Numbered from the stretch's first letter, positions 7,106-18,461 are shown. The stretch: 32,000 bases of DNA from Bdellovibrionales bacterium (GCA_963692945.1 OY843585.1:60001-92000), one strand, 5' to 3'. Numbers and translations are program-made. Notes: generated by a model from the sequence alone, not told the origin.

Positions 7106-7182
<77 letters not shown>

Positions 7183-7203
7183 TTTTACAAAACTCTAAGT
7201 AAT

Positions 7204-10200
7204 TTATTTTTTTATAAGCCCCATGGAGCAAACAATCCTTGGCTTTTCATTCATCTTCATAGTTTCTTTCTTATTTAAAAGGATTCCATTTTTATTCCTT
7301 TCTAAAGAAACCTTTAGAATTTCATTATCTGATATTTTTTGTCTAAACATTCTTTTTAAAGTATTTTCAGCATCATTAGTTAAGGGGTAATTATACACAT
7401 CATCCATGAGTTGCTCAGTAGCATCTCTTGTTCCTTCTGGTAAATTTTCTAAAACTTTAAAAAGTTTTGCCCTCGGATTTCGACTGGTTCCAAAATTGCC
7501 TTTCATACCAGTCTTTTCATTTGATTTTTGAATGATAGATAAACCTTTCTCAACTATCTCATAATGACTTTCTGTTCTTTTTAAAGACTCTGTTTCAGGT
7601 TCGCATTTTGCCGTTTCTAAAATTTTCATTTGATCTTCTGCAAGACTTTCCCCTTTGTCATTAAGCTGCAACAAGAAGTTATTCACATGAGATTTAGCAA
7701 ACAATAAAACACTTTCAGACTGATTACTCTCTTTAATGGATTTTGATGAATGAACCATGTTAGGCATATTTTTTATTTTTTCTTCTAACGAAGCATCTTT
7801 TTTAATCCCTTTATTCCATATTTCAAGAGCAAAAGAAGATAAATCAATATCTTCTAAGATTTCTTTTTCTAACACTTGAGATTTTTCGCTATATAAATCT
7901 GTCAAGATTTGCTTTTCATTTTCAAAAAATTTCTCATCTGTACCTATAACTTCTGCATTTTCTCTTAAACGATTTTGTATACGATGTTTTAAGTTTATCA
8001 ACTTATCTAAGCCTTCATTAGGCATAAAAGAATAGCAAAATATTTTATCTGCAAGCTGTCCGATCCTATCAACCCTTCCAACTCTTTGAATGAGTTTAAT
8101 AATAGCCCAAGGAAGATCATAATTGATAATAATATTACAATCTTGAAGATTTTGCCCTTCGCTTAAGACATCTGTAGTTATTAAAATATCAATTTCTGGT
8201 TCATTAAGAGAGGACTTGTTACTTTTAGGACTAAACCTTTTAATAGTAGGCTGTATATTATCCATTCCCCCTGTTATTAATTCTAATTTTTTTAACCCTC
8301 TTTTATTCAACTGACTTTCTAAATACTGGGCTGTTTCCCTAGATTGAGTAAATACAATCACCTTCTTATTTTCTTTTTTTAAAAGTGTTTCCAATTTTTT
8401 TAACTTTAAATCAGCCTCAGGATTCCACTCTTCTGAATTTCTTAACAAAGAAATAAATTGCTCTGTATCTTTTTCTAAATCTTCTAGTAATTTATCATTG
8501 AAATAAGTAGAGGATATCCAGCGAATACTTCCACTATTTTTTTCTTTATATTTTTTATAAGATTCCTTTGCTTTTTGATAAAAAGAATCAAAGTCCGTAA
8601 GAAAATAAGCCTTATCTTCATCTTCTTCTAAAAAACCCGTTATGCCACCTTCTGAATCATTAAAAGCATCAGCGACAATATCACTACTTTTATCCCTTAC
8701 TATTAAATCTTCTTGATTTTTAATAGCATAAATAAAAATACAATTCCTTAAAATATGCCTTTGAATAGATTGCAAAAAAGAATAACCACTGCTTTCTAAT
8801 CTTTTAAATAAGTTAATTCTACAAAAACCTTTTGGATGAGCACGAGATTGCTCTAAATCTTGAAATAATTTATTTTCTTCTTTTGATAAATCAGGAAGAT
8901 TTTCCTTCTTATAACTAAATAAATCGTAACGAGCCAGATTAAGATTATTAATTATATCCACAACTTCTTGAGAAAAAAGTTTTTGATATTGCTCATCAAT
9001 ATCATATTTTACAGTTTTAGCCACTCTATCAGGAAAAAATCTTTTATCTCCACTAGATGTTTCTATATAACACCTGCCTTCTGCATTTTCTCTTCCGTAA
9101 TTTTCTTTGATAAAACTTCTTGTTCTTCTAACTAAGAATTGAGCCATAAGTTGTTGCCAGTCCTCTGAGTAATTAGACTTTTCAAAAGCCCTTAATGTTG
9201 AAGTTAAACCTTCAAAGTTTTCCACTTCTTTTAAAAATCGATTAGGCCTAACTCCTAAATTAGCATCAGGGTCAACAAAAAGACCTAATTGACTAGATAA
9301 ATCCTTATAGGTTTTATTATAAGGAGTGGCTGATAATAAAATGCACTTGCTATCATTCTGACTGATATAGTCTCTAATCACTTGATATCTCTTACCTTGA
9401 GGATTTCTTAAATTATGACTCTCATCTATAATAACAATATGATGTCTTTTTAATTCAGGAAGCTTTTTTTGAACTTGACTAATAGGGATAACTTTTCCAC
9501 TCAATACCCATTCCTGCCTATGTTCTTCCCACATTGTTTCAAGATTTTTAGGACACAAAATAAGAGTTTGCCAACCATTTTCTTCTTCAAGAATTTTGGC
9601 TACAGCTATAGCCATTAAAGTTTTTCCTAAACCCACAACATCCCCAATTAACACACCATTTTTATGGACAACATGATGAGTTGCTATACGAACAGCTGCA
9701 GATTGGAACTCAAACAAAGTATCTTTTAATTCTTTTGGTATAAAAAAATCAGTTAATCCTTTTCTAGCATCTTCTGAAAGATGATAAGCCATTTTCATAT
9801 AAATATGATAAGGTTTTATTAAAGACTCTCTTGCCCAACTCTCTTCAATAAGTTTTATAATTTCTTCTGAAATATCAAGACTAAACTGGTCATTCCATTT
9901 ACCTTCAAACCACTTACTTAAGCTATCACAGGATTGCTGGTCTAACACATCTATATTAAGTTCTCCTTGTCTTTCTAAGCCTGCAAGAGTTAAATTGCTA
10001 CTTCCCACAAAGCCAATCTTTCCCGCATAATCTTTTTCATTGAAGGTCAAATAAAGTTTGGCGTGTAGGGGATGACGGGTAAAGCATTTTATAATAACTT
10101 TTTTTTCTTTCAATTGTCTTACTAAATTTCTTAATCCTTTTTCGTCTTCATTTGAGGGATAACCTGTCATAAGCTGGTTTCTAAAATTTTTAATAGTATC

Positions 10201-10479
10201 TGCCTTTAATTTCCGAGCCTTACTATTATCAGCCTTAAAAAGCACTTCGCCTTCTTTTCTCAATTCTTGTTTAAAATGGTAACCTTGACCATACATACCT
10301 AAAAGAAGACGACATTGATGCTCTTCTCCCCCTTTGTATTTATTGATAGAAGAAGCTATTTTTTTCCAACCTCTGAGATTAAAATAAGCAGCAGAAATAT
10401 CAGACCTATAAGACTTTTCTAAGGCCTCACTAAGACCAGATAAGAAAATTATTTCTTGATTGTCATAAATTGTTGGCAT
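7204..10479 (-). CDS. Fusion protein: N-terminal single-HKD PLD-family nuclease + SNF2-like SF2 helicase/translocase + uncharacterised C-terminal region of about 270 aa
   Basis: HKD motif HAKLYL...GFVGSSNLT (H139/K141; nt 10057-10065). SF2 motifs: I GLGKT (aa 283-287, nt 9619-9633), II DESH (aa 352-355, nt 9415-9426), III LLSATP (aa 381-386). C-lobe: VIVFTQS, TTDVLSEGQNLQ, and motif VI QRVGRVDRIGQ (aa 798-808). The start lies 3 nt after the upstream stop. Confidence 0.88.
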   Translation of the reverse strand: MPTIYDNQEIIFLSGLSEALEKSYRSDISAAYFNLRGWKKIASSINKYKGGEEHQCRLLLGMYGQGYHFKQELRKEGEVLFKADNSKARKLKADTIKNFRNQLMTGYPSNEDEKGLRNLVRQLKEKKVIIKCFTRHPLHAKLYLTFNEKDYAGKIGFVGSSNLTLAGLERQGELNIDVLDQQSCDSLSKWFEGKWNDQFSLDISEEIIKLIEESWARESLIKPYHIYMKMAYHLSEDARKGLTDFFIPKELKDTLFEFQSAAVRIATHHVVHKNGVLIGDVVGLGKTLMAIAVAKILEEENGWQTLILCPKNLETMWEEHRQEWVLSGKVIPISQVQKKLPELKRHHIVIIDESHNLRNPQGKRYQVIRDYISQNDSKCILLSATPYNKTYKDLSSQLGLFVDPDANLGVRPNRFLKEVENFEGLTSTLRAFEKSNYSEDWQQLMAQFLVRRTRSFIKENYGRENAEGRCYIETSSGDKRFFPDRVAKTVKYDIDEQYQKLFSQEVVDIINNLNLARYDLFSYKKENLPDLSKEENKLFQDLEQSRAHPKGFCRINLFKRLESSGYSFLQSIQRHILRNCIFIYAIKNQEDLIVRDKSSDIVADAFNDSEGGITGFLEEDEDKAYFLTDFDSFYQKAKESYKKYKEKNSGSIRWISSTYFNDKLLEDLEKDTEQFISLLRNSEEWNPEADLKLKKLETLLKKENKKVIVFTQSRETAQYLESQLNKRGLKKLELITGGMDNIQPTIKRFSPKSNKSSLNEPEIDILITTDVLSEGQNLQDCNIIINYDLPWAIIKLIQRVGRVDRIGQLADKIFCYSFMPNEGLDKLINLKHRIQNRLRENAEVIGTDEKFFENEKQILTDLYSEKSQVLEKEILEDIDLSSFALEIWNKGIKKDASLEEKIKNMPNMVHSSKSIKESNQSESVLLFAKSHVNNFLLQLNDKGESLAEDQMKILETAKCEPETESLKRTESHYEIVEKGLSIIQKSNEKTGMKGNFGTSRNPRAKLFKVLENLPEGTRDATEQLMDDVYNYPLTNDAENTLKRMFRQKISDNEILKVSLERNKNGILLNKKETMKMNEKPRIVCSMGLIKK

Positions 10480-10482
10480 TTT

Positions 10483-13400
10483 TTAAGAAGCCTTAAGACA
10501 AGAATGACCTTCTTTAAAAAATTCAAGAGAAAGTTTTTTTAAGGTTTGAAGTCTTTCTTGATTTTTGCCTGTTTTAAAGGTGCCTAGAATGTATTCATAT
10601 TCATCAATAGTTAAGCCATAAACAGAAGCTACTATAGCATCTATTTCTGCTTGAATTTTATAGCGTGTTTGTTGATTCTTTACACCACCTCGTTTAATTC
10701 CTATTTCATCGGCTAAATCATTAAATTCTTTTCCAATGCAAGTAAGCTCTGCTGATTTTTTGACAAGTTCCTTAAAGCAAGAATCCTTTTCTGTAAGCCT
10801 CGGAATATGCAAATCACGAAGATGCTTTAAATTCACATTTAAATATATTTTTTGAGAAATAAAATAGTTTAATAAAAAACTATTTAAAAAAGCCTGAAGA
10901 AAAAGCATATATTGATTATTTTTAGAGGTTTCTTTGGATTTAATATAAACTCCATGTAAGCTATTTGTGATAAAATAATTTTTAGGAATAATAGATGAGA
11001 TTAACTTCACAGATCCTGTCGACACTATAGTTCGTATGACAATTCGATGATCTTTATAAAATTGATTTTTAAATGCTTTCCCTGTTCCTGTTCTTACTTT
11101 ATTAGAATTTTTACTAATATAACGATCAACACAGGATAAATTTTTATTAAATTCATATTGATAGATAGCTGCTCCTTTATAAAGAGGCAAACTATCAGAT
11201 GACTGTTTATTCTTGAATAAAGCGGAATCATTTGTTTCATCAAATTCTCTATAAAAATCAGCCATCCATGAATTCTCTAATTTTTCTTCGAGTTTTGGAA
11301 ATTTACTAACTTTCTTAAGCATCTCTTTTTCTTTTGGATGTTTAAACTCTATAATAGAGCAATCACGAGGTGAAAATTTCTGTATTTCCTCAAAGGATTG
11401 CTCAATTGTATTTTCATTAGGAAAATTATTAATAATACCTAAATTCTCTGCTCGAAACTGGCAAGAAAATTTCTCTTGATTTTGCGGTTTGTCTTTTTTT
11501 AAGTTTAGTAATAAAAATTGAACAGTAGAACCCACACCTTCAAATATAATTCTTTCCTTTCCTTTATTAACAAAAGTAATTAGTGCTTTTATTTTACTCT
11601 CTTCAAGAACATGCCTCCTGATTCCAAAAGAGCCTTCATCGCAACAAAACCCTCGTGGCAAAACTATTCCTAAAAAACCATTTTTATTTAAAAGATTAAA
11701 ACATCTTTCTATAAACAATCTATAATTTTCTATATCAGAAGAAGATTTTCTTTCTGAACCATCTACATTAGTTATATTATCAGACTGATAAGAGTAAACC
11801 TTTGAAAAATAATCTCTTTGCAATCGATAAGTAGATTTAATCCTTAGATAATCTTTTTTTATCTTATTATTTTTTAATAGTTTTTCTTTATTTTTTTTAA
11901 GAGTATTCTTAGGTGTTCTTTTTATGCTAAAAGAGTCATCATACTTACAAAAAAATTCTTTATCTTCTATTTTAACTTTTTCCCAAGGAGGATTTGTTAT
12001 AATAATATCAAAGCCTCCTTTATCTATAATTTCATTAAAAGAAAAATCCCAGTGAAATGGTCTTAAAGAATCAAAACCTTCTTTAAGATGCCTTTTTTGT
12101 TTCTCCATGGATGTTTTTTTACCTTTAACATCTATATTTTTTTCATACTTTAACCCTTCATCGTCACACTTATCAGATAAAACTTGATTAAGATTAGAGT
12201 TATTTTCTTCAAGGAATTTTGACACCTTTTGTTTTAATTCCTTTAATTTTTCAAATGATAAGGATTTATTTTTATATTGATTAACAAGCTTGTTGTATTT
12301 TTCTTTTATTTGAGAATAAGACTCTCCAAACAGGGAAAATTGCTCATTAGTATTTTTTTCTTTTAAAAAACCTATAAGAGAATTTCCATGCATTATATTA
12401 AAATCCATATTAGGTAAAGGTTCAAGCTCCGTTGAATCTAAAGCAGAACTCACAAGAGAAAGAAAGAGCCTCAATTTACAAACTTCTGTAGCCTCTTTCA
12501 TAATATCTACACCATAAAGATTTTTAAGGATGATGTTTTTCTTTATTCCATATAAAATACTTTTGTGTCTATTATTAAAATTTTCTAGCCAAGCTTTTAA
12601 CTCCCTATCTGAACTAGTTTCTATCTTACCAATAATAGGACTATAAACATCTATTAGATTTTTCAAAGCAGAAACAAGGAAAGCTCCAGAACCAACAGCA
12701 GGGTCTAAAATCGTCAAAGTATTTAAAATGCTATCTTTATCCGTAAGTAAAATTTTACACATTTTATCATCTAATTTTTCAAATAATTCTCCAATGTTAC
12801 TAAATTTATGCCCTCTTTTAGCTAATTTATCCAAGATACAGTTGTGAATAGATCTTTGGTTCAAGAAACCTGTAATTTCATCCCTAGTATAATAAGCTCC
12901 AAGACTTTTTTGCTGAATTTCATTTATATATTTTTCAAAGATATAGCCTAAAACATCAGGACTGATTTCATTATCCTTTCCTTTATTATCTTGAAGATGC
13001 CATTCATAATTTTGAAAAATTTTAAATGTTTCTTCAAAGGCTTTATCTTTTATTTTTATATTTCTATATTTCTCTTCAATCTCATGAGGAATAAAAAGCC
13101 CTCCATTTAAATACTTGATTTTTCCAAGAAGATTTTTTGCTTTCTCGCTTCTTTCAATAGTTTTTTTTGCAAAACCCTCAAAGAAAAGTGTATTTAAAAA
13201 TTCTGAATGGTATCGGTCTTTTCCTTTAACCTTGCTTTCCTGCAGTTTAGTTTCAAGATAGCTACGATTATTATCACAAAAATCCTTTTTCTGTAAAAAC
13301 CAAATAAACATCAAACGATTTAGTATAATAGAAGAATACCATTTTTTATCCTCTTCACTTTTGATTCCTGAAATATATTTTTGGAAACTAAAATGGTTAT

Positions 13401-13872
13401 TTTTAAAATCTTCATAAAACTTTTTTGTGACTTTTTCAGTATCAAAAGCTTTATCTAAGTTGTTTGCTATTTCAGAAATTTTTGGTACATCTTCTATTCC
13501 AAAGTGAATGCTTGCTAATTTACTGATAAAAGCATCACCACTTTGCTCCTTAAAATAATTATGAGTTCTAAGATCTCCTTCTTTTGAAAGATAAGAGAGG
13601 TAAAAACTTTTATCATTTGAAAATAACAACAAATGTTTATGATACTTTTGTTTTATCTTGTTATGAATCTTTTTTCTTCTTTCACCTGCAACATATTCAA
13701 ATTTTAATACGGGTACACCACTAATTTCTGCAACATGTGTGTAAGGTATATTTGAATTTTCTAATTTAATTGAACTAGACTGGACTTGTGGATTATTCCA
13801 ACCTAAGCTCTCAACAAATAATTTTTGAAATTCAAAATTTTTCAAATGATTTCTAATACTTGCGATATCCAT
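10483..13872 (-). CDS. Large gamma-class N6-adenine DNA methyltransferase (Eco57I/MmeI/PglX-like) with a C-terminal target-recognition region of about 500 aa
   Basis: Conserved blocks: ILNRLMFIWFLQKK, YLNGGLF, ISPDVLGYIFEKYIN, GAYYT. AdoMet motif I is LDPAVGSGAFL (aa 389-399, nt 12676-12708). Also NLYGVDI and HGNSLIG. Catalytic motif IV is NPPW (aa 627-630, nt 11983-11994). I could not recognise any nuclease motif. Confidence 0.88.
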   Translation of the reverse strand: MDIASIRNHLKNFEFQKLFVESLGWNNPQVQSSSIKLENSNIPYTHVAEISGVPVLKFEYVAGERRKKIHNKIKQKYHKHLLLFSNDKSFYLSYLSKEGDLRTHNYFKEQSGDAFISKLASIHFGIEDVPKISEIANNLDKAFDTEKVTKKFYEDFKNNHFSFQKYISGIKSEEDKKWYSSIILNRLMFIWFLQKKDFCDNNRSYLETKLQESKVKGKDRYHSEFLNTLFFEGFAKKTIERSEKAKNLLGKIKYLNGGLFIPHEIEEKYRNIKIKDKAFEETFKIFQNYEWHLQDNKGKDNEISPDVLGYIFEKYINEIQQKSLGAYYTRDEITGFLNQRSIHNCILDKLAKRGHKFSNIGELFEKLDDKMCKILLTDKDSILNTLTILDPAVGSGAFLVSALKNLIDVYSPIIGKIETSSDRELKAWLENFNNRHKSILYGIKKNIILKNLYGVDIMKEATEVCKLRLFLSLVSSALDSTELEPLPNMDFNIMHGNSLIGFLKEKNTNEQFSLFGESYSQIKEKYNKLVNQYKNKSLSFEKLKELKQKVSKFLEENNSNLNQVLSDKCDDEGLKYEKNIDVKGKKTSMEKQKRHLKEGFDSLRPFHWDFSFNEIIDKGGFDIIITNPPWEKVKIEDKEFFCKYDDSFSIKRTPKNTLKKNKEKLLKNNKIKKDYLRIKSTYRLQRDYFSKVYSYQSDNITNVDGSERKSSSDIENYRLFIERCFNLLNKNGFLGIVLPRGFCCDEGSFGIRRHVLEESKIKALITFVNKGKERIIFEGVGSTVQFLLLNLKKDKPQNQEKFSCQFRAENLGIINNFPNENTIEQSFEEIQKFSPRDCSIIEFKHPKEKEMLKKVSKFPKLEEKLENSWMADFYREFDETNDSALFKNKQSSDSLPLYKGAAIYQYEFNKNLSCVDRYISKNSNKVRTGTGKAFKNQFYKDHRIVIRTIVSTGSVKLISSIIPKNYFITNSLHGVYIKSKETSKNNQYMLFLQAFLNSFLLNYFISQKIYLNVNLKHLRDLHIPRLTEKDSCFKELVKKSAELTCIGKEFNDLADEIGIKRGGVKNQQTRYKIQAEIDAIVASVYGLTIDEYEYILGTFKTGKNQERLQTLKKLSLEFFKEGHSCLKAS

Positions 13873-14033
13873 GGATGATATATCGGCAAGCCTAAATTTT
13901 ATTTTAAGAAAATCTATACCACAATAGAAAATCTAGACCTTAAATAAGAACAGGTTCCTCTTCACCCATTGATTACAAACTTTCTAGTTCCTCGTAAATC
14001 TCATGAAGGCCATCTAAAAAACTTAGAGACAAA

Positions 14034-14060
14034 TCAAATCCTGCCACCCCGACCATTTTA
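14034..14060 (+). repeat. Distal copy of the 27-bp tRNA-Pro 3'-end direct repeat (att-like)
   Basis: Identical to 7161-7187. Not part of a full tRNA, because upstream sequence does not fold as one. Confidence 0.9.
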
Positions 14061-14079
14061 AAACGGAAAAATAAATATT

Positions 14080-15048
14080 TTATTTGTTTTGAGATTGGTT
14101 TGGCATAACTACAGGTTGCGGTTGAAAAAATTTCATAAAAGCTCTACCTGTATGGTTTTCAATAATTTTTGTTACGAAGGTAGAGGTAAAAGTATGATTT
14201 ATCGTGTGGAAGATAGATAAAAATAAATCCTGCTCTTTTTGATTTTCTTCAAGATATTGAATTTTTAAACCTTGTTTTTCTAATTGATCTCTAGATATTT
14301 TTCGACCATGAGTTTTGAAAGTGTTATTATCTGATAACCATTCTGCTATTGATTTTGCCTTTTCTTTTTCATTTTTAAGCATATATTTTTCTAACCAGCT
14401 CTCTACTAATTCCTGCGATAGTTTTATAACCTTATCACTTTGAATAAGAAGATCGGGACCATACTGACTTAACATAGGAAGCCAAGAATTTAATTTAGAA
14501 GAATCCTTACATTCTTTTTGAGCCAGATCAAATTGATCCAATATAGATTGGGCAGAAACCCATCTACCACCTGTTGGAGTAGGTAAGACAAGTTGAGGAT
14601 CAGTAGGACCTAAAAAAGAATGCTTTCCAAGAACTATTACATCCCCTGCACAAGAAATCATAGTGCCAGCAGACATAGCCATTGAAGGCACAATAACACG
14701 AATATTTTTAAATTTTGATCTTAAATAACTCACAAAAGCTTCAGTAGATTCTATGGAACCACCTGGTGTATGGAGAATTAAATCTAGATCAGAACCTGAA
14801 AGACCATGAATAACCTCCATAAGACCTTGTAAGTCCTCATCTGTGATGCTTGACAAGTTTGGGGGAACATTAGGCTTTACGATCCAACAAGAAGAATACA
14901 GAATAATATTTCTTTTTGTATATTCAAAACATTTTTTTAAATATTTACGACGAATAAAATCAATAGGAGATACTTTTGCATTTAATGCCTCAGATCCAGG
15001 TAAACATTGCTCGTTTAATTCTTTAAGTGTTTCACTCCAAGTTGGCAT
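14080..15048 (-). CDS. SDH-family ClpP/crotonase-fold serine protease (S49-like)
   Basis: LILHTPGGSIESTEAFVSYLRSKFKNIRVIVPSMAMSAGTMISCAGDVIVLGKHSFLGPTDPQ matches the SDH-type serine proteinase pattern (HTPGG ... catalytic Ser in MSAG, S126). Confidence 0.8.
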   Translation of the reverse strand: MPTWSETLKELNEQCLPGSEALNAKVSPIDFIRRKYLKKCFEYTKRNIILYSSCWIVKPNVPPNLSSITDEDLQGLMEVIHGLSGSDLDLILHTPGGSIESTEAFVSYLRSKFKNIRVIVPSMAMSAGTMISCAGDVIVLGKHSFLGPTDPQLVLPTPTGGRWVSAQSILDQFDLAQKECKDSSKLNSWLPMLSQYGPDLLIQSDKVIKLSQELVESWLEKYMLKNEKEKAKSIAEWLSDNNTFKTHGRKISRDQLEKQGLKIQYLEENQKEQDLFLSIFHTINHTFTSTFVTKIIENHTGRAFMKFFQPQPVVMPNQSQNK

Positions 15049-15067
15049 TGATATGTATCTTAATATT

Positions 15068-15277
15068 TTAAAGAAAGGTTTTTAGATTGAGTGTGTTAGA
15101 ATTATAACTGTTATAACTGTTATAACTGTTATCTTTAATATCTTGATGAGTTTTTACAACTTTATTAGCTTCTTGATAATATTGATAAACTTCCATTAAT
15201 TCTTTAATCCCCGGCTTTTTAAGATATTCTTGTAGCTCTGTAGCTCTTTTTGGCCTATCTTTAAGTGTTTTTTTCAT
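15068..15277 (-). CDS. Small hypothetical protein (69 aa) with an NSY-repeat tail, upstream partner of the SDH protease
   Basis: AGGA lies 6 nt upstream of the ATG at 15277. The gene ends 19 nt before the protease start. The N-terminal half is charged and helical. No known motif. Confidence 0.45.
   Translation of the reverse strand: MKKTLKDRPKRATELQEYLKKPGIKELMEVYQYYQEANKVVKTHQDIKDNSYNSYNSYNSNTLNLKTFL
15102..15132 (-). repeat. In-frame 9-bp tandem repeat (ttataactg x3.4) encoding (SYN)n
   Basis: ttataactg occurs at 15102-15110, 15111-15119 and 15120-15128, followed by a partial ttat. Confidence 0.85.
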
Positions 15278-15486
15278 GTTAGATCCTTATCTTTATTTTA
15301 CTATAATTTCCCTAAAATCTAAAGCCCAGAACAAAGAAAAGCAAGGTCAAAAGTGGGTTTTTATGAGGCTTTTTTAAGATAAACAAGTTTTACCTATTCT
15401 GGAAAACTAAATGATACCCCCAAACGATAAGCCCTAGCTTCATTATTGTTATTTTATACGTTTTGTCTAAAGAATTGTTAAAAAGA

Positions 15487-15547
15487 GGCAGACGACATGC
15501 AGACGACATTGGTCTCAAAGTCATTGATTTTAAAGGGTTTTTGAGAG
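15487..15547 (+). repeat. 61-bp direct repeat, copy 1 (contains two tandem 11-mers, gcagacgacat)
   Basis: ggcagacgacatgcagacgacattggtctcaaagtcattgattttaaagggtttttgagag matches copy 2 at 60/61 positions. Confidence 0.9.
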
Positions 15548-15574
15548 ATCTGAAGACAGAATGAGCTGAATATA

Positions 15575-15635
15575 GGTAGACGACATGCAGACGACATTGG
15601 TCTCAAAGTCATTGATTTTAAAGGGTTTTTGAGAG
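15575..15635 (+). repeat. 61-bp direct repeat, copy 2
   Basis: ggtagacgacatgcagacgacattggtctcaaagtcattgattttaaagggtttttgagag, separated from copy 1 by a 27-bp spacer. Confidence 0.9.
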
Positions 15636-15690
15636 GTTAATTAATTAACACTTTAAAAAATTATTACTTTTACCTAAATAATTAAAATTA

Positions 15691-16851
15691 CTAGCTTTTT
15701 TCCAAACTTTTAACAATATCTTTTAACTCCTGAATAAATTTCCAAAAAGGCAAAATAATAACTCCCTTCTCTTTTTCTATATGCTTTCTTTTAAGATGAA
15801 CTTGGTAAAAAACTGGAATATTTATTCGTTCTTTAAAATAATAAATGTGTGGAGAAATATTTTCCTCTCCTAACTTACCTTCTACAGCAAAAAGTGGTTT
15901 TTTATTTTTAACGACAACAAAATCAACTTCTCTTTTATTTGTATCTCTTAAAAACCTTAATTCCATTTTATAACCCTGACTGTCTTCTAAAAAATGACAG
16001 AATTTTAAAAGATGACTTGCAAGCATATTTTCAAAACGAAGACCTTTATTTTCAATAACACTCCAATCCCATAGATAAAGCTTTTGTTCTTTTTTTACAG
16101 CACGAATTTTAGGAGCTCCATAAGGAGAGATTCTAAATGAATAGTAAAGGTTATCTAAAATCTCAATCCAATTTGCCGCTGTAGCATGATGAACACCAAG
16201 ATCGTCTGCTATACTTTTAATAGAAAGAGGTGATCCTATTCTTCTAGGAAGATCATTTGCTAAAAGCTCTATTAAACTCAGTTCTTTTATATTGTTCAGC
16301 TCTCTTATATCGTCATTGATAACTCTAAAAACCCGCTCTCGTTGCCAAAGCCTTAAGTTTTTCTCTCTTCCTTCTAAAAGAACTTCAGGGAAACCTCCAA
16401 AATGAAGTAATTGCTCTGTTGTTTCTTTATTAAAACTAGGCATTTCATCTAAAGAAAAGGGATGGAGTCTTACATAGCGATAACGTCCCAAAAGAGAATC
16501 CCCTCCTTTACGATAATAATCAAGCCGAGCCGAGCCTGTTATTAAAAATTTATATTTATATCTTTTTGTATCATAAAGACCTTTTATAAGAGATCGCCAC
16601 TTTTTAAATTTATGAATCTCATCTAAACATAGTATTTTTTTATCTATAGGAAATTCTCCATTTTGAATTTTAAACCGAGAAGAAGGGTCATCCCAATTTA
16701 AATAAGAAGAACTTCTTATTGATTTAGGAGTTAGAAACTGTGTACAAAGAGTTGTCTTACCAACCTGTCTAGGACCTCCTACAAAAACCATTTTATTTTT
16801 TAAAAACTCTTCAATAGTATTAAATAGATACCGATTTTTAAATTTCTTCAT
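15691..16851 (-). CDS. AAA-family ATPase with a C-terminal DUF4143-type PD-(D/E)xK nuclease-like domain
   Basis: Walker A GGPRQVGKTTL; Walker B-like ILCLDEIHKF; LITGSARLD and SLLGRYRYVRLHPFSL are typical of the AAA_14 family. The C-terminal REVDFVVV...LFAVEGK gives a D...ExK arrangement. Confidence 0.8.
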   Translation of the reverse strand: MKKFKNRYLFNTIEEFLKNKMVFVGGPRQVGKTTLCTQFLTPKSIRSSSYLNWDDPSSRFKIQNGEFPIDKKILCLDEIHKFKKWRSLIKGLYDTKRYKYKFLITGSARLDYYRKGGDSLLGRYRYVRLHPFSLDEMPSFNKETTEQLLHFGGFPEVLLEGREKNLRLWQRERVFRVINDDIRELNNIKELSLIELLANDLPRRIGSPLSIKSIADDLGVHHATAANWIEILDNLYYSFRISPYGAPKIRAVKKEQKLYLWDWSVIENKGLRFENMLASHLLKFCHFLEDSQGYKMELRFLRDTNKREVDFVVVKNKKPLFAVEGKLGEENISPHIYYFKERINIPVFYQVHLKRKHIEKEKGVIILPFWKFIQELKDIVKSLEKS

Positions 16852-16866
16852 AACTTCATCTTATAT

Positions 16867-16929
16867 CGTGAGTAAATGATAGTCAAGTATCAAATACTCA
16901 CGAGTAAATGATAGTTAGGTATCAAATAC
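16867..16929. repeat. Tandem 28-bp repeat (period 32) with an embedded 8-bp inverted repeat, immediately upstream of the ATPase gene
   Basis: gagtaaatgatagtcaagtatcaaatac (16870-16897) versus gagtaaatgatagttaggtatcaaatac (16902-16929): 26/28 identical. CGTGAGTA (16867-16874) and TACTCACG (16895-16902) form an inverted repeat. Confidence 0.8.
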
Positions 16930-16960
16930 ACCGACACCTATGGGCTTTAGGATAGCCAGT

Positions 16961-17017
16961 TTTTCTGAACCCTACTCCAGAAAAGACATGACTTTTCTGG
17001 AATACACTACAGAAAAG
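16961..17017. promoter_or_regulatory. Array of four alternating CAGAAAAG / CTTTTCTG half-sites (operator or alternative-hairpin leader)
   Basis: TTTTCTG 16961-16967; CAGAAAAG 16978-16985; CTTTTCTG 16992-16999; CAGAAAAG 17010-17017. The central pair is a perfect 9-bp palindrome, CCAGAAAAG-N6-CTTTTCTGG (16977-17000). The array lies between the divergent genes at 16851 (-) and 17040 (+). Confidence 0.5.
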
Positions 17018-17039
17018 TCTTTGATTTCAAATTAAGTAG

Positions 17040-17252
17040 ATGTATTATCATCCTATGACTCGTGAGGATTTAAAAAAAATTAATGATGAGATTGCTCAAA
17101 TAGAATATTTATTATCTTTTTTAGATTCAAGAAATTCATTTGAAAATAAACAAATAAAAAATCTAATAGGACGTGCTTTTGAAATACGGGAAATATTACA
17201 GGCTTATTATTTAAAAGCCCGAAAAAAAAAGATAGGATTACAAATTCTCTAA
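17040..17252 (+). CDS. Small hypothetical helical protein (70 aa)
   Basis: ORF only; no motif recognised. It starts 23 nt downstream of the half-site array. Confidence 0.35.
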   Translation: MYYHPMTREDLKKINDEIAQIEYLLSFLDSRNSFENKQIKNLIGRAFEIREILQAYYLKARKKKIGLQIL

Positions 17253-17558
17253 AAAAACTTAAAAGAATATACCTTTCTTTGTTCTTCGTATTTAGTTCCC
17301 GATTTTTATTTTCAAAAACATTAGTTAAAATATTAATTATGCAACATCTTGACTAAAATCATCTTCATCTATATCGCTCAGTACTGGAATATTTTGGAAA
17401 ATGATGATTATTAGAAAATAGTCCTGATCAAGACAAAAATACTTGAATGAGATATTTTAATAAACTTAAGATATATAGAAACAGATAAAGAAGAAAGTGA
17501 GTTTAACTAGGATTCAACTCTTTAATAAAGTTTTCTAATAAATTACCTAGGAGTTTTT

Positions 17559-18461
17559 ATGCCAATACCTTTCCAACAAATTATGCTTCCTCTTCTTAAA
17601 GAATTAAAAAATGGGGAAGAAAAATCAACAGCTGATATTAGAACAAAACTGCAAAATCATTTCAAGTTATCAGAAGAAGAAGCCAAAAAATTACTTCCTA
17701 GTGGTGGTAATCGATCCATATTTTCTAATCGTGTCAACTGGGCTAAAACCTACCTAAAAAAAGCAGGCCTCATTGATTATCCTCAACGAAGTTATGCTCG
17801 TATTACTAAAACAGGCAAAGAAGTATTAAATGAAAATCTTTCAGAAATAACTTTTGATTATTTAAAAAAGTTTCCTGAGTTTTTAGAATTTCTGAATCTA
17901 AATTCAAAAAAAGAGCAACAAGAAGAATTGAGTTCTAATGAAACACCTTTAGAGCAATTAGATATGGCTTATACAATGTTAAAAGATGAACTTAAAAAAG
18001 AACTTTTAGAAAATGTAAGGAAGAGTTCTTATTTTTTCTTTGAACAGATCATTGTCGATTTACTTATAAATCTTGGTTATGGTGGTTCTAAAAAGGAAGC
18101 TGGAAAAGCCTTTAAAACAACTAAGGATGAAGGAATTGATGGAGTTATAAAGGAAGATAAACTTGGTCTTGATTTGATTTACACTCAAGCTAAGAAATGG
18201 GAAGCTTGTATAGGAAGACCAGAAATTCAAAAATTTGCTGGTGCATTACAAGGTAAAAAAGCTAAAAAAGGTATCTTTGTTACCACTTCTTATTTCTCTA
18301 ACGATGCAATTGAATATGTTAAAACCATAGACTCTAAAATTATTTTGATTGATGGTGATTCTCTAGTTGAATATATGATTGATACAAATACGGGAGTAAA
18401 CACAACTTCAAAATATGAAGTTAAAAAAATAGATGAAGATTATTTTAGCGACAATATCTAA
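17559..18461 (+). CDS. mrr: Mrr-family type IV (modification-dependent) restriction endonuclease
   Basis: Strong RBS (TAGGAG, 17548-17553). N-terminal winged-helix-like region (Mrr_N style: SNRVNWAKTYLKKAGLI). Catalytic core KDEGIDGVIKEDKLGLDLIYTQAKKW matches the Mrr_cat D...(Q/E)xK signature. Confidence 0.85.
   Translation: MPIPFQQIMLPLLKELKNGEEKSTADIRTKLQNHFKLSEEEAKKLLPSGGNRSIFSNRVNWAKTYLKKAGLIDYPQRSYARITKTGKEVLNENLSEITFDYLKKFPEFLEFLNLNSKKEQQEELSSNETPLEQLDMAYTMLKDELKKELLENVRKSSYFFFEQIIVDLLINLGYGGSKKEAGKAFKTTKDEGIDGVIKEDKLGLDLIYTQAKKWEACIGRPEIQKFAGALQGKKAKKGIFVTTSYFSNDAIEYVKTIDSKIILIDGDSLVEYMIDTNTGVNTTSKYEVKKIDEDYFSDNI

Follow-up and report, generated by a model that had tools for sequence, protein, structure and literature searches.

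The stretch of DNA analysed here, called the window in the following, comprises 32,000 nucleotides (nt) from a Bdellovibrionales bacterium (GCA_963692945.1 OY843585.1:60001-92000) and contains a pair of large genes which very probably form a methylation-based, restriction-like defence module. The upstream gene (10483-13872, minus strand) encodes a protein of 1129 amino acids (aa), an Eco57I/MmeI-like gamma-class N6-adenine DNA methyltransferase (MTase), which is predicted to be the modification and specificity subunit. The downstream gene (7204-10479, minus strand) encodes a protein of 1091 aa, in which a nuclease domain of the phospholipase D (PLD) type with an HKD motif is fused to a SWI2/SNF2 ATPase; this protein, designated PLD-SNF2, is predicted to be the motor and nuclease (restriction) subunit. 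Only 3 nt lie between the MTase stop codon and the PLD-SNF2 start codon (TAA AAA ATG). A preliminary description of this DNA had reported two open reading frames (ORFs) of these lengths on the same strand, with this spacing, as the sole cargo of a repeat-bounded islet; the coordinates were reproduced here, and the origin of the repeat can now be added.

The islet adjoins a gene for tRNA-Pro(UGG) (7106-7182, plus strand; detected by ARAGORN and by the Rfam tRNA model with 68.9 bits), which served as the integration site. A perfect direct repeat of 27 nt, TCAAATCCTGCCACCCCGACCATTTTA, is present at 7161-7187 and 14034-14060; when extended to 30 nt, the left, attL-like copy (7161-7190) and the right, attR-like copy (14034-14063) agree in 29 positions. 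No such match is expected by chance (0 in 100 shuffles). The repeat consists of the 3' 22 nt of the tRNA-Pro gene and 5 nt further, and because the 3' end of the tRNA is thus duplicated at the far side, the 6.9-kb segment between the copies is a tRNA-integrated element. It carries the MTase and PLD-SNF2 genes only; no integrase gene was found in the islet, where the stop codon of PLD-SNF2 is a mere 21 nt away from the tRNA. Its G+C content (0.27-0.29) is slightly below that of the flanks (0.30-0.33). A non-coding leader of 161 nt upstream of the MTase gene (13873-14033, minus strand), still inside the islet, is presumed to be the promoter region. A scan of this AT-rich DNA (30% GC) for promoter consensus sequences gave 36 promoter-like sites, compared with 34.7 in shuffled sequences, and a scan for terminators found none. 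Another degenerate copy of the tRNA end, as an older island boundary, was sought and not found.

Three regions can be distinguished in the PLD-SNF2 protein. The N-terminus (aa ~1-215; 9835-10479, minus strand) is a single-HKD PLD nuclease domain, for which Pfam gave PLDc_2 (1.2e-08, aa 90-195) and RE_NgoFVII (4.8e-07, aa 116-197), both above the cut-off. The SWI2/SNF2 ATPase core (aa ~240-830; 7990-9762, minus strand), with an insertion of ~300 aa between the two RecA lobes, was matched by SNF2-rel_dom (1.3e-15; 57.7 bits, cut-off 24.9) and Helicase_C (4.7e-20); a ResIII match concerned the generic lobe 1 only. The C-terminal region (aa ~831-1091, ~270 aa; 7207-7989, minus strand) is conserved across the family and matched no sequence family. 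The motifs are H139/K141, GSSN (159-162), GLGKT (283-287), DESH (352-355), SAT (383-385) and QRVGRVDRIGQ (798-808); these, as well as the methylase motifs given below, are located at the residues which had been quoted previously. In an alignment of 36 homologues H139, K141, G159-N162, G283-T287, D352-S354, A384, T385, Q798, R799, R802 and R805 were invariant, and H355 and S383 were conserved in at least 90% of the proteins. An AlphaFold model (predicted template modelling score 0.71) shows the inter-lobe insertion and the C-terminal region, both of which had been anticipated with similar lengths. When this model was submitted to Foldseek, CSB, SRCAP, RapA, Chd1, ISWI and a Sulfolobus Rad54-like SNF2 protein were retrieved with E-values of 1e-15 to 1e-12, the RapA models being aligned over ~1000 or more columns (1031-1187). 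PLD-SNF2 is a genuine SWI2/SNF2 enzyme with the seven helicase motifs, an SNF2-type fold and an inter-lobe insertion, and in its layout it resembles the RapA-type helicases found in BREX-related systems; its PLD domain, with one HKD motif per chain, is by sequence closest to the NgoFVII/BfiI restriction nucleases. PLD nucleases need two HKD motifs per active site, and enzymes with a single HKD motif, of the BfiI type, act as dimers. An SRA/DUF3427-like reader domain was not detected with Pfam or Foldseek. Sequence and profile searches of the PDB reached the generic SNF2 core only, and the best PADLOC model was C3a139 "HKD+Snf2" (1.1e-48), with DrmD (1.8e-34), HmaA (2.8e-24), BrxHII and DpdE as near profiles.

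The methylase begins with a family-specific region (aa 1-372; 12757-13872, minus strand), a predicted coupling module, in which an alpha/beta domain (aa 1-121) is followed by a helical region of the DUF7814 type (7.5e-09; AlphaFold model). The catalytic core (aa 373-660; 11893-12756, minus strand) contains motif I, a coiled-coil insertion and NPPW; the hypervariable C-terminal region (aa 661-1129; 10486-11892, minus strand) is the predicted target-recognition domain (TRD). Pfam assigned Eco57I (7.9e-18) and MmeI_Mtase (2e-08), and thus profile searches bore out the PLDc_2, SNF2-rel_dom, Helicase_C and Eco57I domain calls for the two proteins. The motifs GAYYT (G325-T329), LDPAVGSGAFL (389-399) and NPPW (627-630) are present, with D390, P391, G394, S395 and N627-W630 invariant in 36 homologues. 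Two PADLOC models for type IIG enzymes (REase_MTase_IIG) matched the protein, PDLC03628 (3.5e-94, aa 4-368) and PDLC03613 (aa 381-1104), and its C-terminal half shares homology with that part of Alw26I-family and type IIG enzymes in which the TRD resides. The search of the PDB with sequences and profiles aligned the core only, to BsaXI, BrxX and MmeI. The earlier statement that the methylase has no nuclease motif holds: no conserved D...(D/E)xK was found in the N-terminal alignment of the 36 homologues, the best candidate Asp being Asn in the window protein, and Foldseek gave no significant match for the N-terminal domain; a weak one was to 9y1l, a putative restriction-endonuclease-domain protein (E=0.15). 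The N-terminal alpha/beta domain was also encountered elsewhere: a 396-aa protein of locus L100 (13145-14335) joins it, with its LGW...HEHLLV motif, to sigma-70 regions 2 and 4, and the domain is thus a mobile module which also serves outside methylases.

Relatives of PLD-SNF2 number in the thousands. The closest ones, 60-73% identical, stem from metagenome-assembled genomes and circular contigs of Oligoflexia/Bdellovibrionales; identities of ~46% over the full length were obtained for Armatimonadota, NC10, Nitrospinota, Planctomycetota, Eremiobacterota and others, and full-length matches continued to ~35% identity in a library of 50%-identity representatives. Hundreds of full-length copies were found in metagenomes, and a tblastn search of plasmids yielded full-length relatives in Anabaena cylindrica, Nostoc punctiforme, Pelobacter propionicus, Picosynechococcus, Rhodococcus, Microbacterium and Synechocystis sp. 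PCC 6803. For the analysis of neighbourhoods, 80 metagenomic and 10 IMG/VR loci with full-length PLD-SNF2 relatives were searched by tblastn with three pieces of the window MTase. The N-terminal piece adjoined the PLD-SNF2 gene in 81 of the 90 loci: 78 times downstream on the same strand, often at a distance of 0-40 nt, twice in convergent orientation and once upstream, as in the window. Eight of the nine other loci end no more than 1.1 kb downstream of PLD-SNF2, and therefore 81 of 82 informative loci possess the MTase; in the sole informative exception (L038) toxin-antitoxin genes and a transporter gene follow PLD-SNF2. The pair occurs in Oligoflexia, cyanobacteria, Planctomycetes, Armatimonadota, Actinobacteria and Desulfuromonadia. 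Pfam-annotated neighbourhoods agreed with the pairing, and reciprocal look-ups, starting from MTase homologues of Microcystis and of a gammaproteobacterium, revealed PLD-SNF2 just upstream in both cases. Gene order is inverted in the clade of the window and in L085 and convergent in L044 and L058, which suggests selection on the pair rather than on a fixed operon layout. MTase and PLD-SNF2 are a conserved stand-alone unit with near-obligate pairing. Clustering of the non-overlapping neighbour ORFs of the 90 loci revealed no other large recurrent gene, and DrmA/DrmB, PglZ/BrxC or a DUF499 ATPase did not recur among them; the pair is thus not confined to larger DISARM (defence island system associated with restriction-modification) or BREX (bacteriophage exclusion) loci, nor, very probably, is the copy in the window a remnant of one or of a BREX-related system. 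More distant PLD-SNF2 proteins (26-29% identity; L014, L106) are likewise located beside Eco57I-like methylases, together with one or two small genes, and the association should therefore be older than the family of the window. Ten full-length pairs (L096-L105) were on contigs which IMG/VR classes as viral, and the module may travel on prophages or phage-like elements, too.

The regions of the MTase differ in their relation to the partner. In distant pairs, the first ~370 residues are the best-conserved part in tblastn comparisons (36-45% identity, E 1e-60 to 1e-100), the core is ~33% identical and the last ~470 residues are usually undetectable. The pairwise identity of PLD-SNF2 was compared with that of each MTase region in 54 complete pairs; the correlation was r=0.72 for the N-terminus, r=0.51 for the core and r=0.12 for the C-terminus. 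Where the PLD-SNF2 partners are 70-99% identical, the MTase C-termini average only 28% identity, which is the signature of TRD exchange. The variable C-terminus fits a swappable TRD on a conserved module that co-evolves with PLD-SNF2. The ~500 aa following NPPW, previously suggested as a possible target-recognition region, are in fact 499 aa, of which the last ~470 are hypervariable and decoupled from the motor.

One further gene is recurrent. A DprA-like protein of ~200 aa (PF02481, 3e-05, below the gathering score) is encoded in 22 of 46 loci with enough sequence, where its gene overlaps the MTase stop codon or follows after 0.5-4 kb (L065, 16595-17218; L096, 9784-10425; L020, 16626-17228; and 19 other loci). 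Genes between the MTase and a remote DprA-like gene were of the Fic/RhuM, PIN toxin-antitoxin, AlbA_2, Macro and transposase types. Neither the window nor its Oligoflexia relatives possess the gene; in the clade concerned, the system may have this protein as its third component. Unrelated genes were also found embedded between the core genes or just after them (L007, 3819-4496; L177, 7346-7999; L181, 3670-5238; L176, 12487-13120; L024, 16693-17703). They code for a probable membrane protein of ~220 aa (in close Oligoflexia relatives), an AAA_21/AAA_15 ATPase, VapC toxin-antitoxin, RhuM-Fic and Fic-HTH proteins, and resemble embedded defence genes of other multi-gene systems. The loci are situated in defence islands: their wider surroundings contain toxin-antitoxin, Abi, Mrr, ubiquitin-like (Bil-like) and Fic/RhuM genes, and one type III CRISPR neighbourhood. 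In L178 (4701-7932), a close relative, the MTase is a fragment of 631 aa on the opposite strand beside Transposase_31, and PLD-SNF2 is complete; possibly the copy is decaying or has been rearranged. A different array of four genes in IMG/VR (L136, L138, L166; e.g., L166 9995-19120) consists of SNF2, DUF4391, N6_N4 MTase and type III Res genes; its SNF2 proteins are more distant relatives without a detectable PLD domain, and the Res protein carries an endonuclease domain.

Several known systems share parts with this pair. Type ISP enzymes (LlaGI, LlaBIII) unite in one polypeptide an Mrr-like PD-(D/E)xK nuclease, a type I-like motor, a gamma-class N6-adenine MTase and a TRD; their site is asymmetric and methylated on one strand, and cleavage takes place on collision of two converging motors. 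The window pair likewise has a nuclease, a superfamily 2 (SF2) double-stranded DNA translocase, a gamma-class N6-adenine MTase and a TRD as its predicted parts, but two proteins share them, with a nuclease of the single-HKD type and a SWI2/SNF2 motor. In NgoAVII and CglI, a PLD nuclease works together with an SF2 ATPase, and a nucleoside triphosphate is required. In these enzymes, as in BfiI and SauUSI, DNA is recognised by the nuclease/helicase protein (with B3-like or SRA-like domains) and the ATPase is not SWI2/SNF2; the cognate MTase of PLD restriction enzymes is a separate 5-methylcytosine enzyme, or absent. The PLD domain of the window has the single HxK(x)4D...GSxN motif of BfiI and NgoAVII/NgoFVII with intact catalytic His and Lys, and the methylase has, like the type IIG/IIL enzymes MmeI, Eco57I and BpuSI, an N6-adenine core in which the motifs are ordered as in Eco57I/MmeI and behind which a TRD is predicted; an active PD-(D/E)xK nuclease domain in the MTase polypeptide, by which type IIG/IIL is defined, was not found. 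SauUSI combines a PLD nuclease and an SF2 helicase and is reported to be ATP-dependent (ATP or dATP; PMC3141236).

In type III systems, exemplified by EcoP15I (Mod2Res1), Mod provides specificity and methylation, Res provides the SF2 ATPase and the nuclease, and two inverse asymmetric sites are required, which are hemimethylated (PMC4490356). The division into two genes, with modification and specificity separated from an SF2 ATPase-nuclease, is alike in the window. Type III differs in its beta-class Mod, in the C-terminal PD-(D/E)xK nuclease of Res and in an ATPase which acts as a switch for one-dimensional diffusion, whereas the window pair has an N-terminal HKD nuclease, a SWI2/SNF2 fold and the gamma-class motif order; the motor is therefore not a type III Res, as had been said before. 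Class 1 DISARM also possesses a large N6-adenine MTase (DrmMI, 6.6e-23), an SNF2 protein (DrmD, 1.8e-34) and a PLD nuclease, but in the window PLD and SNF2 are fused, and DrmA (YprA helicase) and DrmB (DUF1998) are absent, as they are from the related neighbourhoods annotated with Pfam. The NCBIfam model for DrmD (NF038317) gave 136 bits with a cut-off of 610, and the PADLOC matches to DrmD and DrmMI were partial; consequently, the proteins are not members of these families. The PglX model of NCBIfam gave 57.6 bits with the MTase (cut-off 500), and the BREX proteins PglZ phosphatase and BrxC ATPase are missing from the islet and did not recur in the 90 loci. PbeABCD was considered as well, via the "phospholipase D-like anti-phage protein" NF042964, and rejected: the score was 123.7 bits (cut-off 1100), and no ABC or DndE partner, as in the Pbe context with its CxC ABC ATPase and DndE-like proteins (PMC10853773), was recurrent.

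The architecture as such has been mentioned before. Fusions of HKD nucleases with SWI2/SNF2 proteins in restriction-modification (R-M) contexts were noted already in 2006-2012; an origin from bacterial R-M systems has been proposed for the eukaryotic SNF2 remodellers and TDP1 (PMC3417536). The cluster C3a139, "HKD+Snf2", which Shah et al. recorded beside type III CRISPR-Cas loci, owes its label to their survey of neighbour genes and is not the name of a defence system (PMC6546367). In Type-2 BREX-related (BR) systems, an HKD-Swi2/Snf2 helicase with a RapA-like layout occurs together with an N6-MTase, and an RM-like logic has been proposed (Rakesh & Krishnan 2026, PMC12839542). The defining component of BR systems is an AAA+ ATPase with DUF499, and 98% of Type-2 systems have a stand-alone DUF3780 protein (PMC12839542). 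The window pair shares with Type-2 BR/Hma the N-terminal HKD domain fused to a Swi2/Snf2 helicase and the N6-MTase, but neither DUF499 nor DUF3780 is encoded in the islet or recurs in the 90 loci, and both are absent from the Pfam lists of nine annotated neighbourhoods. The methylase is also different, being an Eco57I/MmeI-like protein of ~1100 aa with an N-terminal module of its own, and the HmaA model matched PLD-SNF2 with 2.8e-24 only. DISARM, BREX, PbeA, type III and type IIG each fail in at least one defining feature. The former opinion that the pair is not a recognised named system agrees with this. There are, however, the two earlier mentions of the architecture and the four-gene relative published in 2026, and the module is best regarded as an uncharacterised variant of ATP-dependent R-M and not as a categorically new system. 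The type IIG models of PADLOC matched the MTase (3.5e-94). Annotation pipelines would probably label the methylase as a single-gene type IIG enzyme, which is probably wrong, and ignore its partner; at present the two are misannotated as "type IIG" and "helicase-related protein".

Published data exist for one homologue of the methylase. Plasmid pSYSX of Synechocystis sp. PCC 6803 encodes a PLD-SNF2 protein (43696-47151; WP_011153866.1) with 41.8% full-length identity to that of the window, then a VapC toxin-antitoxin pair and then a "DNA methyltransferase" of 1100 aa (47827-51129). The latter is slr6050; its identity with the window MTase amounts to 36% in the N-terminus (1e-63) and to 26% in the core (5e-38). 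The two pairs belong to the same family, with both genes on the same strand and in a defence island; they differ in that pSYSX has PLD-SNF2 first, the VapC pair embedded and an unrelated C-terminal specificity region. Hagemann et al. (2018, PMC6105098) named the enzyme M.Ssp6803IV and assigned to it the asymmetric motif GAm6AGGC by elimination and with the aid of REBASE; they treated it as an orphan methylase, and the helicase was not mentioned. The knockout of slr6050 never segregated fully and the gene was called essential (PMC6105098). With a live restriction partner a knockout would be expected not to segregate, and the preliminary prediction that loss of the MTase would be toxic is matched by this result, if the homologue can stand for the pair in the window. 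Just beyond the pair on pSYSX (L176, 16924-19545; pSYSX 51619-54240) is a Bil-type defence cluster for ubiquitin-like conjugation, with genes for multiubiquitin, E2/UBC, a ThiF-type E1 and DUF6527, followed by an XRE/ImmA pair.

Considering these data, the MTase probably marks the host's own DNA and PLD-SNF2 probably destroys DNA which is unmarked. On balance, the islet would seem to be a complete, minimal two-subunit ATP-dependent R-M system, the type being known from computational work only. With its variable C-terminal domain, the MTase would read a short, asymmetric site and methylate one adenine on one strand to N6-methyladenine (m6A), thereby marking self DNA; the asymmetric m6A motif and the indispensability of the MTase are taken by analogy from slr6050. 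The conserved N-terminal ~370 aa would recruit or hold PLD-SNF2, and an unmethylated site would engage the SNF2 motor for ATP hydrolysis and translocation on double-stranded DNA. Since each chain has one HKD motif and a PLD active site requires two, two PLD-SNF2 subunits should be needed for cleavage, either as a standing dimer or because two translocating complexes converge, as they do in enzymes of types ISP and III. Such a meeting would result in an orientation-dependent rule of two sites, by which hemimethylated asymmetric sites could be protected after replication; the difficulty of telling self from non-self when only one strand of the site is methylated would thereby be overcome. Complex formation, translocation, dimer-dependent cleavage and an anti-phage function are what we infer from the architecture. 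That cleavage depends on HKD centres assembled by collision is a possibility to which we would attach modest weight. Equally tentative is the idea of a distinct, unrecognised class of ATP-dependent restriction, in which a SWI2/SNF2 motor of the chromatin-remodeller type is steered by an MTase-TRD subunit via the N-terminal coupling module, and the catalytic centre exists only transiently, when two HKD half-sites are joined by converging motors.

Other explanations can be envisaged. A BREX- or DISARM-like exclusion mechanism is not very probable; methylation would again mark self DNA, but SNF2-PLD, instead of cutting foreign DNA at sites, would block replication, remodel the DNA of the invader or set off abortive infection. 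In its favour, the near profiles are DrmD (1.8e-34), BrxHII, HmaA and DpdE, the MTase motifs are common to PglX and DrmMI, the embedded Fic, toxin-antitoxin and ATPase genes resemble accessory or backup effectors of BREX-like loci, and the frequent DprA-like third gene suggests extra sensing steps. Yet the catalytic HKD residues are invariant in a domain nearest to the restriction nucleases NgoFVII and BfiI, the defining BREX, DISARM and BR proteins recur in none of the 90 loci, and the behaviour of the slr6050 knockout fits an attack on unmodified self DNA. It is unlikely that the MTase by itself makes up a type IIG/IIL enzyme similar to MmeI or Eco57I, an N-terminal nuclease included, and that PLD-SNF2 is a separate defence gene or a booster. 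No acidic/lysine triad is kept in the 36 homologues, with Asn in place of the candidate Asp in the window; there was no significant structural match, and the PDB profile aligned with the core only (MmeI, BrxX); moreover, adjacency in 81 of 82 loci and the correlation of N-terminus and motor (r=0.72) argue for one machine. The strong PADLOC type IIG matches (PDLC03628, 3.5e-94; PDLC03613), an alpha-beta-beta-beta-alpha-beta order in the N-terminus, which recalls the restriction-endonuclease fold, and the weak similarity to 9y1l (E=0.15) would be in favour of it.

Decay is a further option, i.e., that the copy in the window is a non-functional remnant of a larger system (Type-2 BR/Hma, class 1 DISARM) or of a genomic island. 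The islet is without an integrase, Type-2 BR uses an HKD-SNF2 protein and an N6-MTase (PMC12839542), and the L178 relative has a truncated, inverted MTase beside a transposase; nevertheless, both ORFs in the window are of full length with all invariant residues intact, the same two-gene unit recurs across phyla (90 loci) without DUF499, DUF3780 or DrmA/B, and the HmaA and DrmD scores are far below family level, which makes this explanation very unlikely. Hardly credible, finally, is a modification-dependent type IV enzyme similar to SauUSI, with the MTase as an unrelated or regulatory orphan. Mrr is encoded 3.5 kb away in the window, and SauUSI itself is reported to be an ATP-dependent PLD nuclease with an SF2 helicase (PMC3141236); but enzymes of that type have no cognate MTase, whereas here an MTase is present in 81 of 82 informative loci and co-varies with the motor, no SRA/DUF3427-like reader was detected, and an indispensable MTase (slr6050) is the opposite of what type IV would predict.

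Some points weigh against the R-M system proposed here. To our knowledge, the SNF2 proteins of BREX, DISARM and Dpd are situated in systems without a demonstrated cleavage mechanism. The DprA-like gene in 22 of 46 distant loci may mean that the two-gene form is incomplete or works differently. Non-segregation of slr6050 could stem from polar effects, from the embedded VapC toxin or from plasmid maintenance, and the authors state that the GAm6AGGC assignment is without genetic or biochemical proof (PMC6105098).

If the proposal is true, a very common gene pair would represent a separate branch of ATP-dependent restriction; it would explain why slr6050 looks essential in Synechocystis PCC 6803 and predict a transformation barrier of this strain at GAAGGC sites. 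Should the reading as a distinct class be true, the pair would give biochemistry its first tractable SNF2 nuclease-translocase from a prokaryote, and would illustrate, in a living system, the R-M ancestry that has been suggested for the SNF2 remodellers and TDP1 of eukaryotes. The interest of the module lies in its abundance, its misannotation, its simple design of two proteins with an SNF2 motor and a half-site nuclease, and the tractable representative in Synechocystis; with only two proteins, it could serve as a simple model for the coupling of a SWI2/SNF2 motor with the recognition of sequences and with a PLD nuclease of half-site type, and its hypervariable specificity domain is a possible source of new recognition sequences.

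Just past the right repeat of the islet, three genes were found in the region 14080-18461. The first (14080-15048) encodes an SDH serine protease similar to ClpP, the second (15691-16851) an AAA_14/DUF4143 ATPase, which matches PADLOC candidate PDC-S01 (2e-46), and the third (17559-18461; 1e-84), 3.5 kb from the islet, a restriction enzyme of the type IV Mrr group. Defence genes may have accumulated more than once at the tRNA-Pro site, and a methyl-directed Mrr enzyme coexists at this locus beside an m6A methylase. Beyond Mrr the housekeeping genes SppA, GreA, MgtE and a pst-phoU-phoBR cluster follow. Between the genes for the SDH protease and the AAA_14/DUF4143 ATPase, an intergenic element of 67 nt, for which no match was found in Rfam, is present twice (15481-15547 and 15569-15635); the copies are 88 nt apart and 96% identical, and the element contains an internal duplication of GCAGACGACAT.

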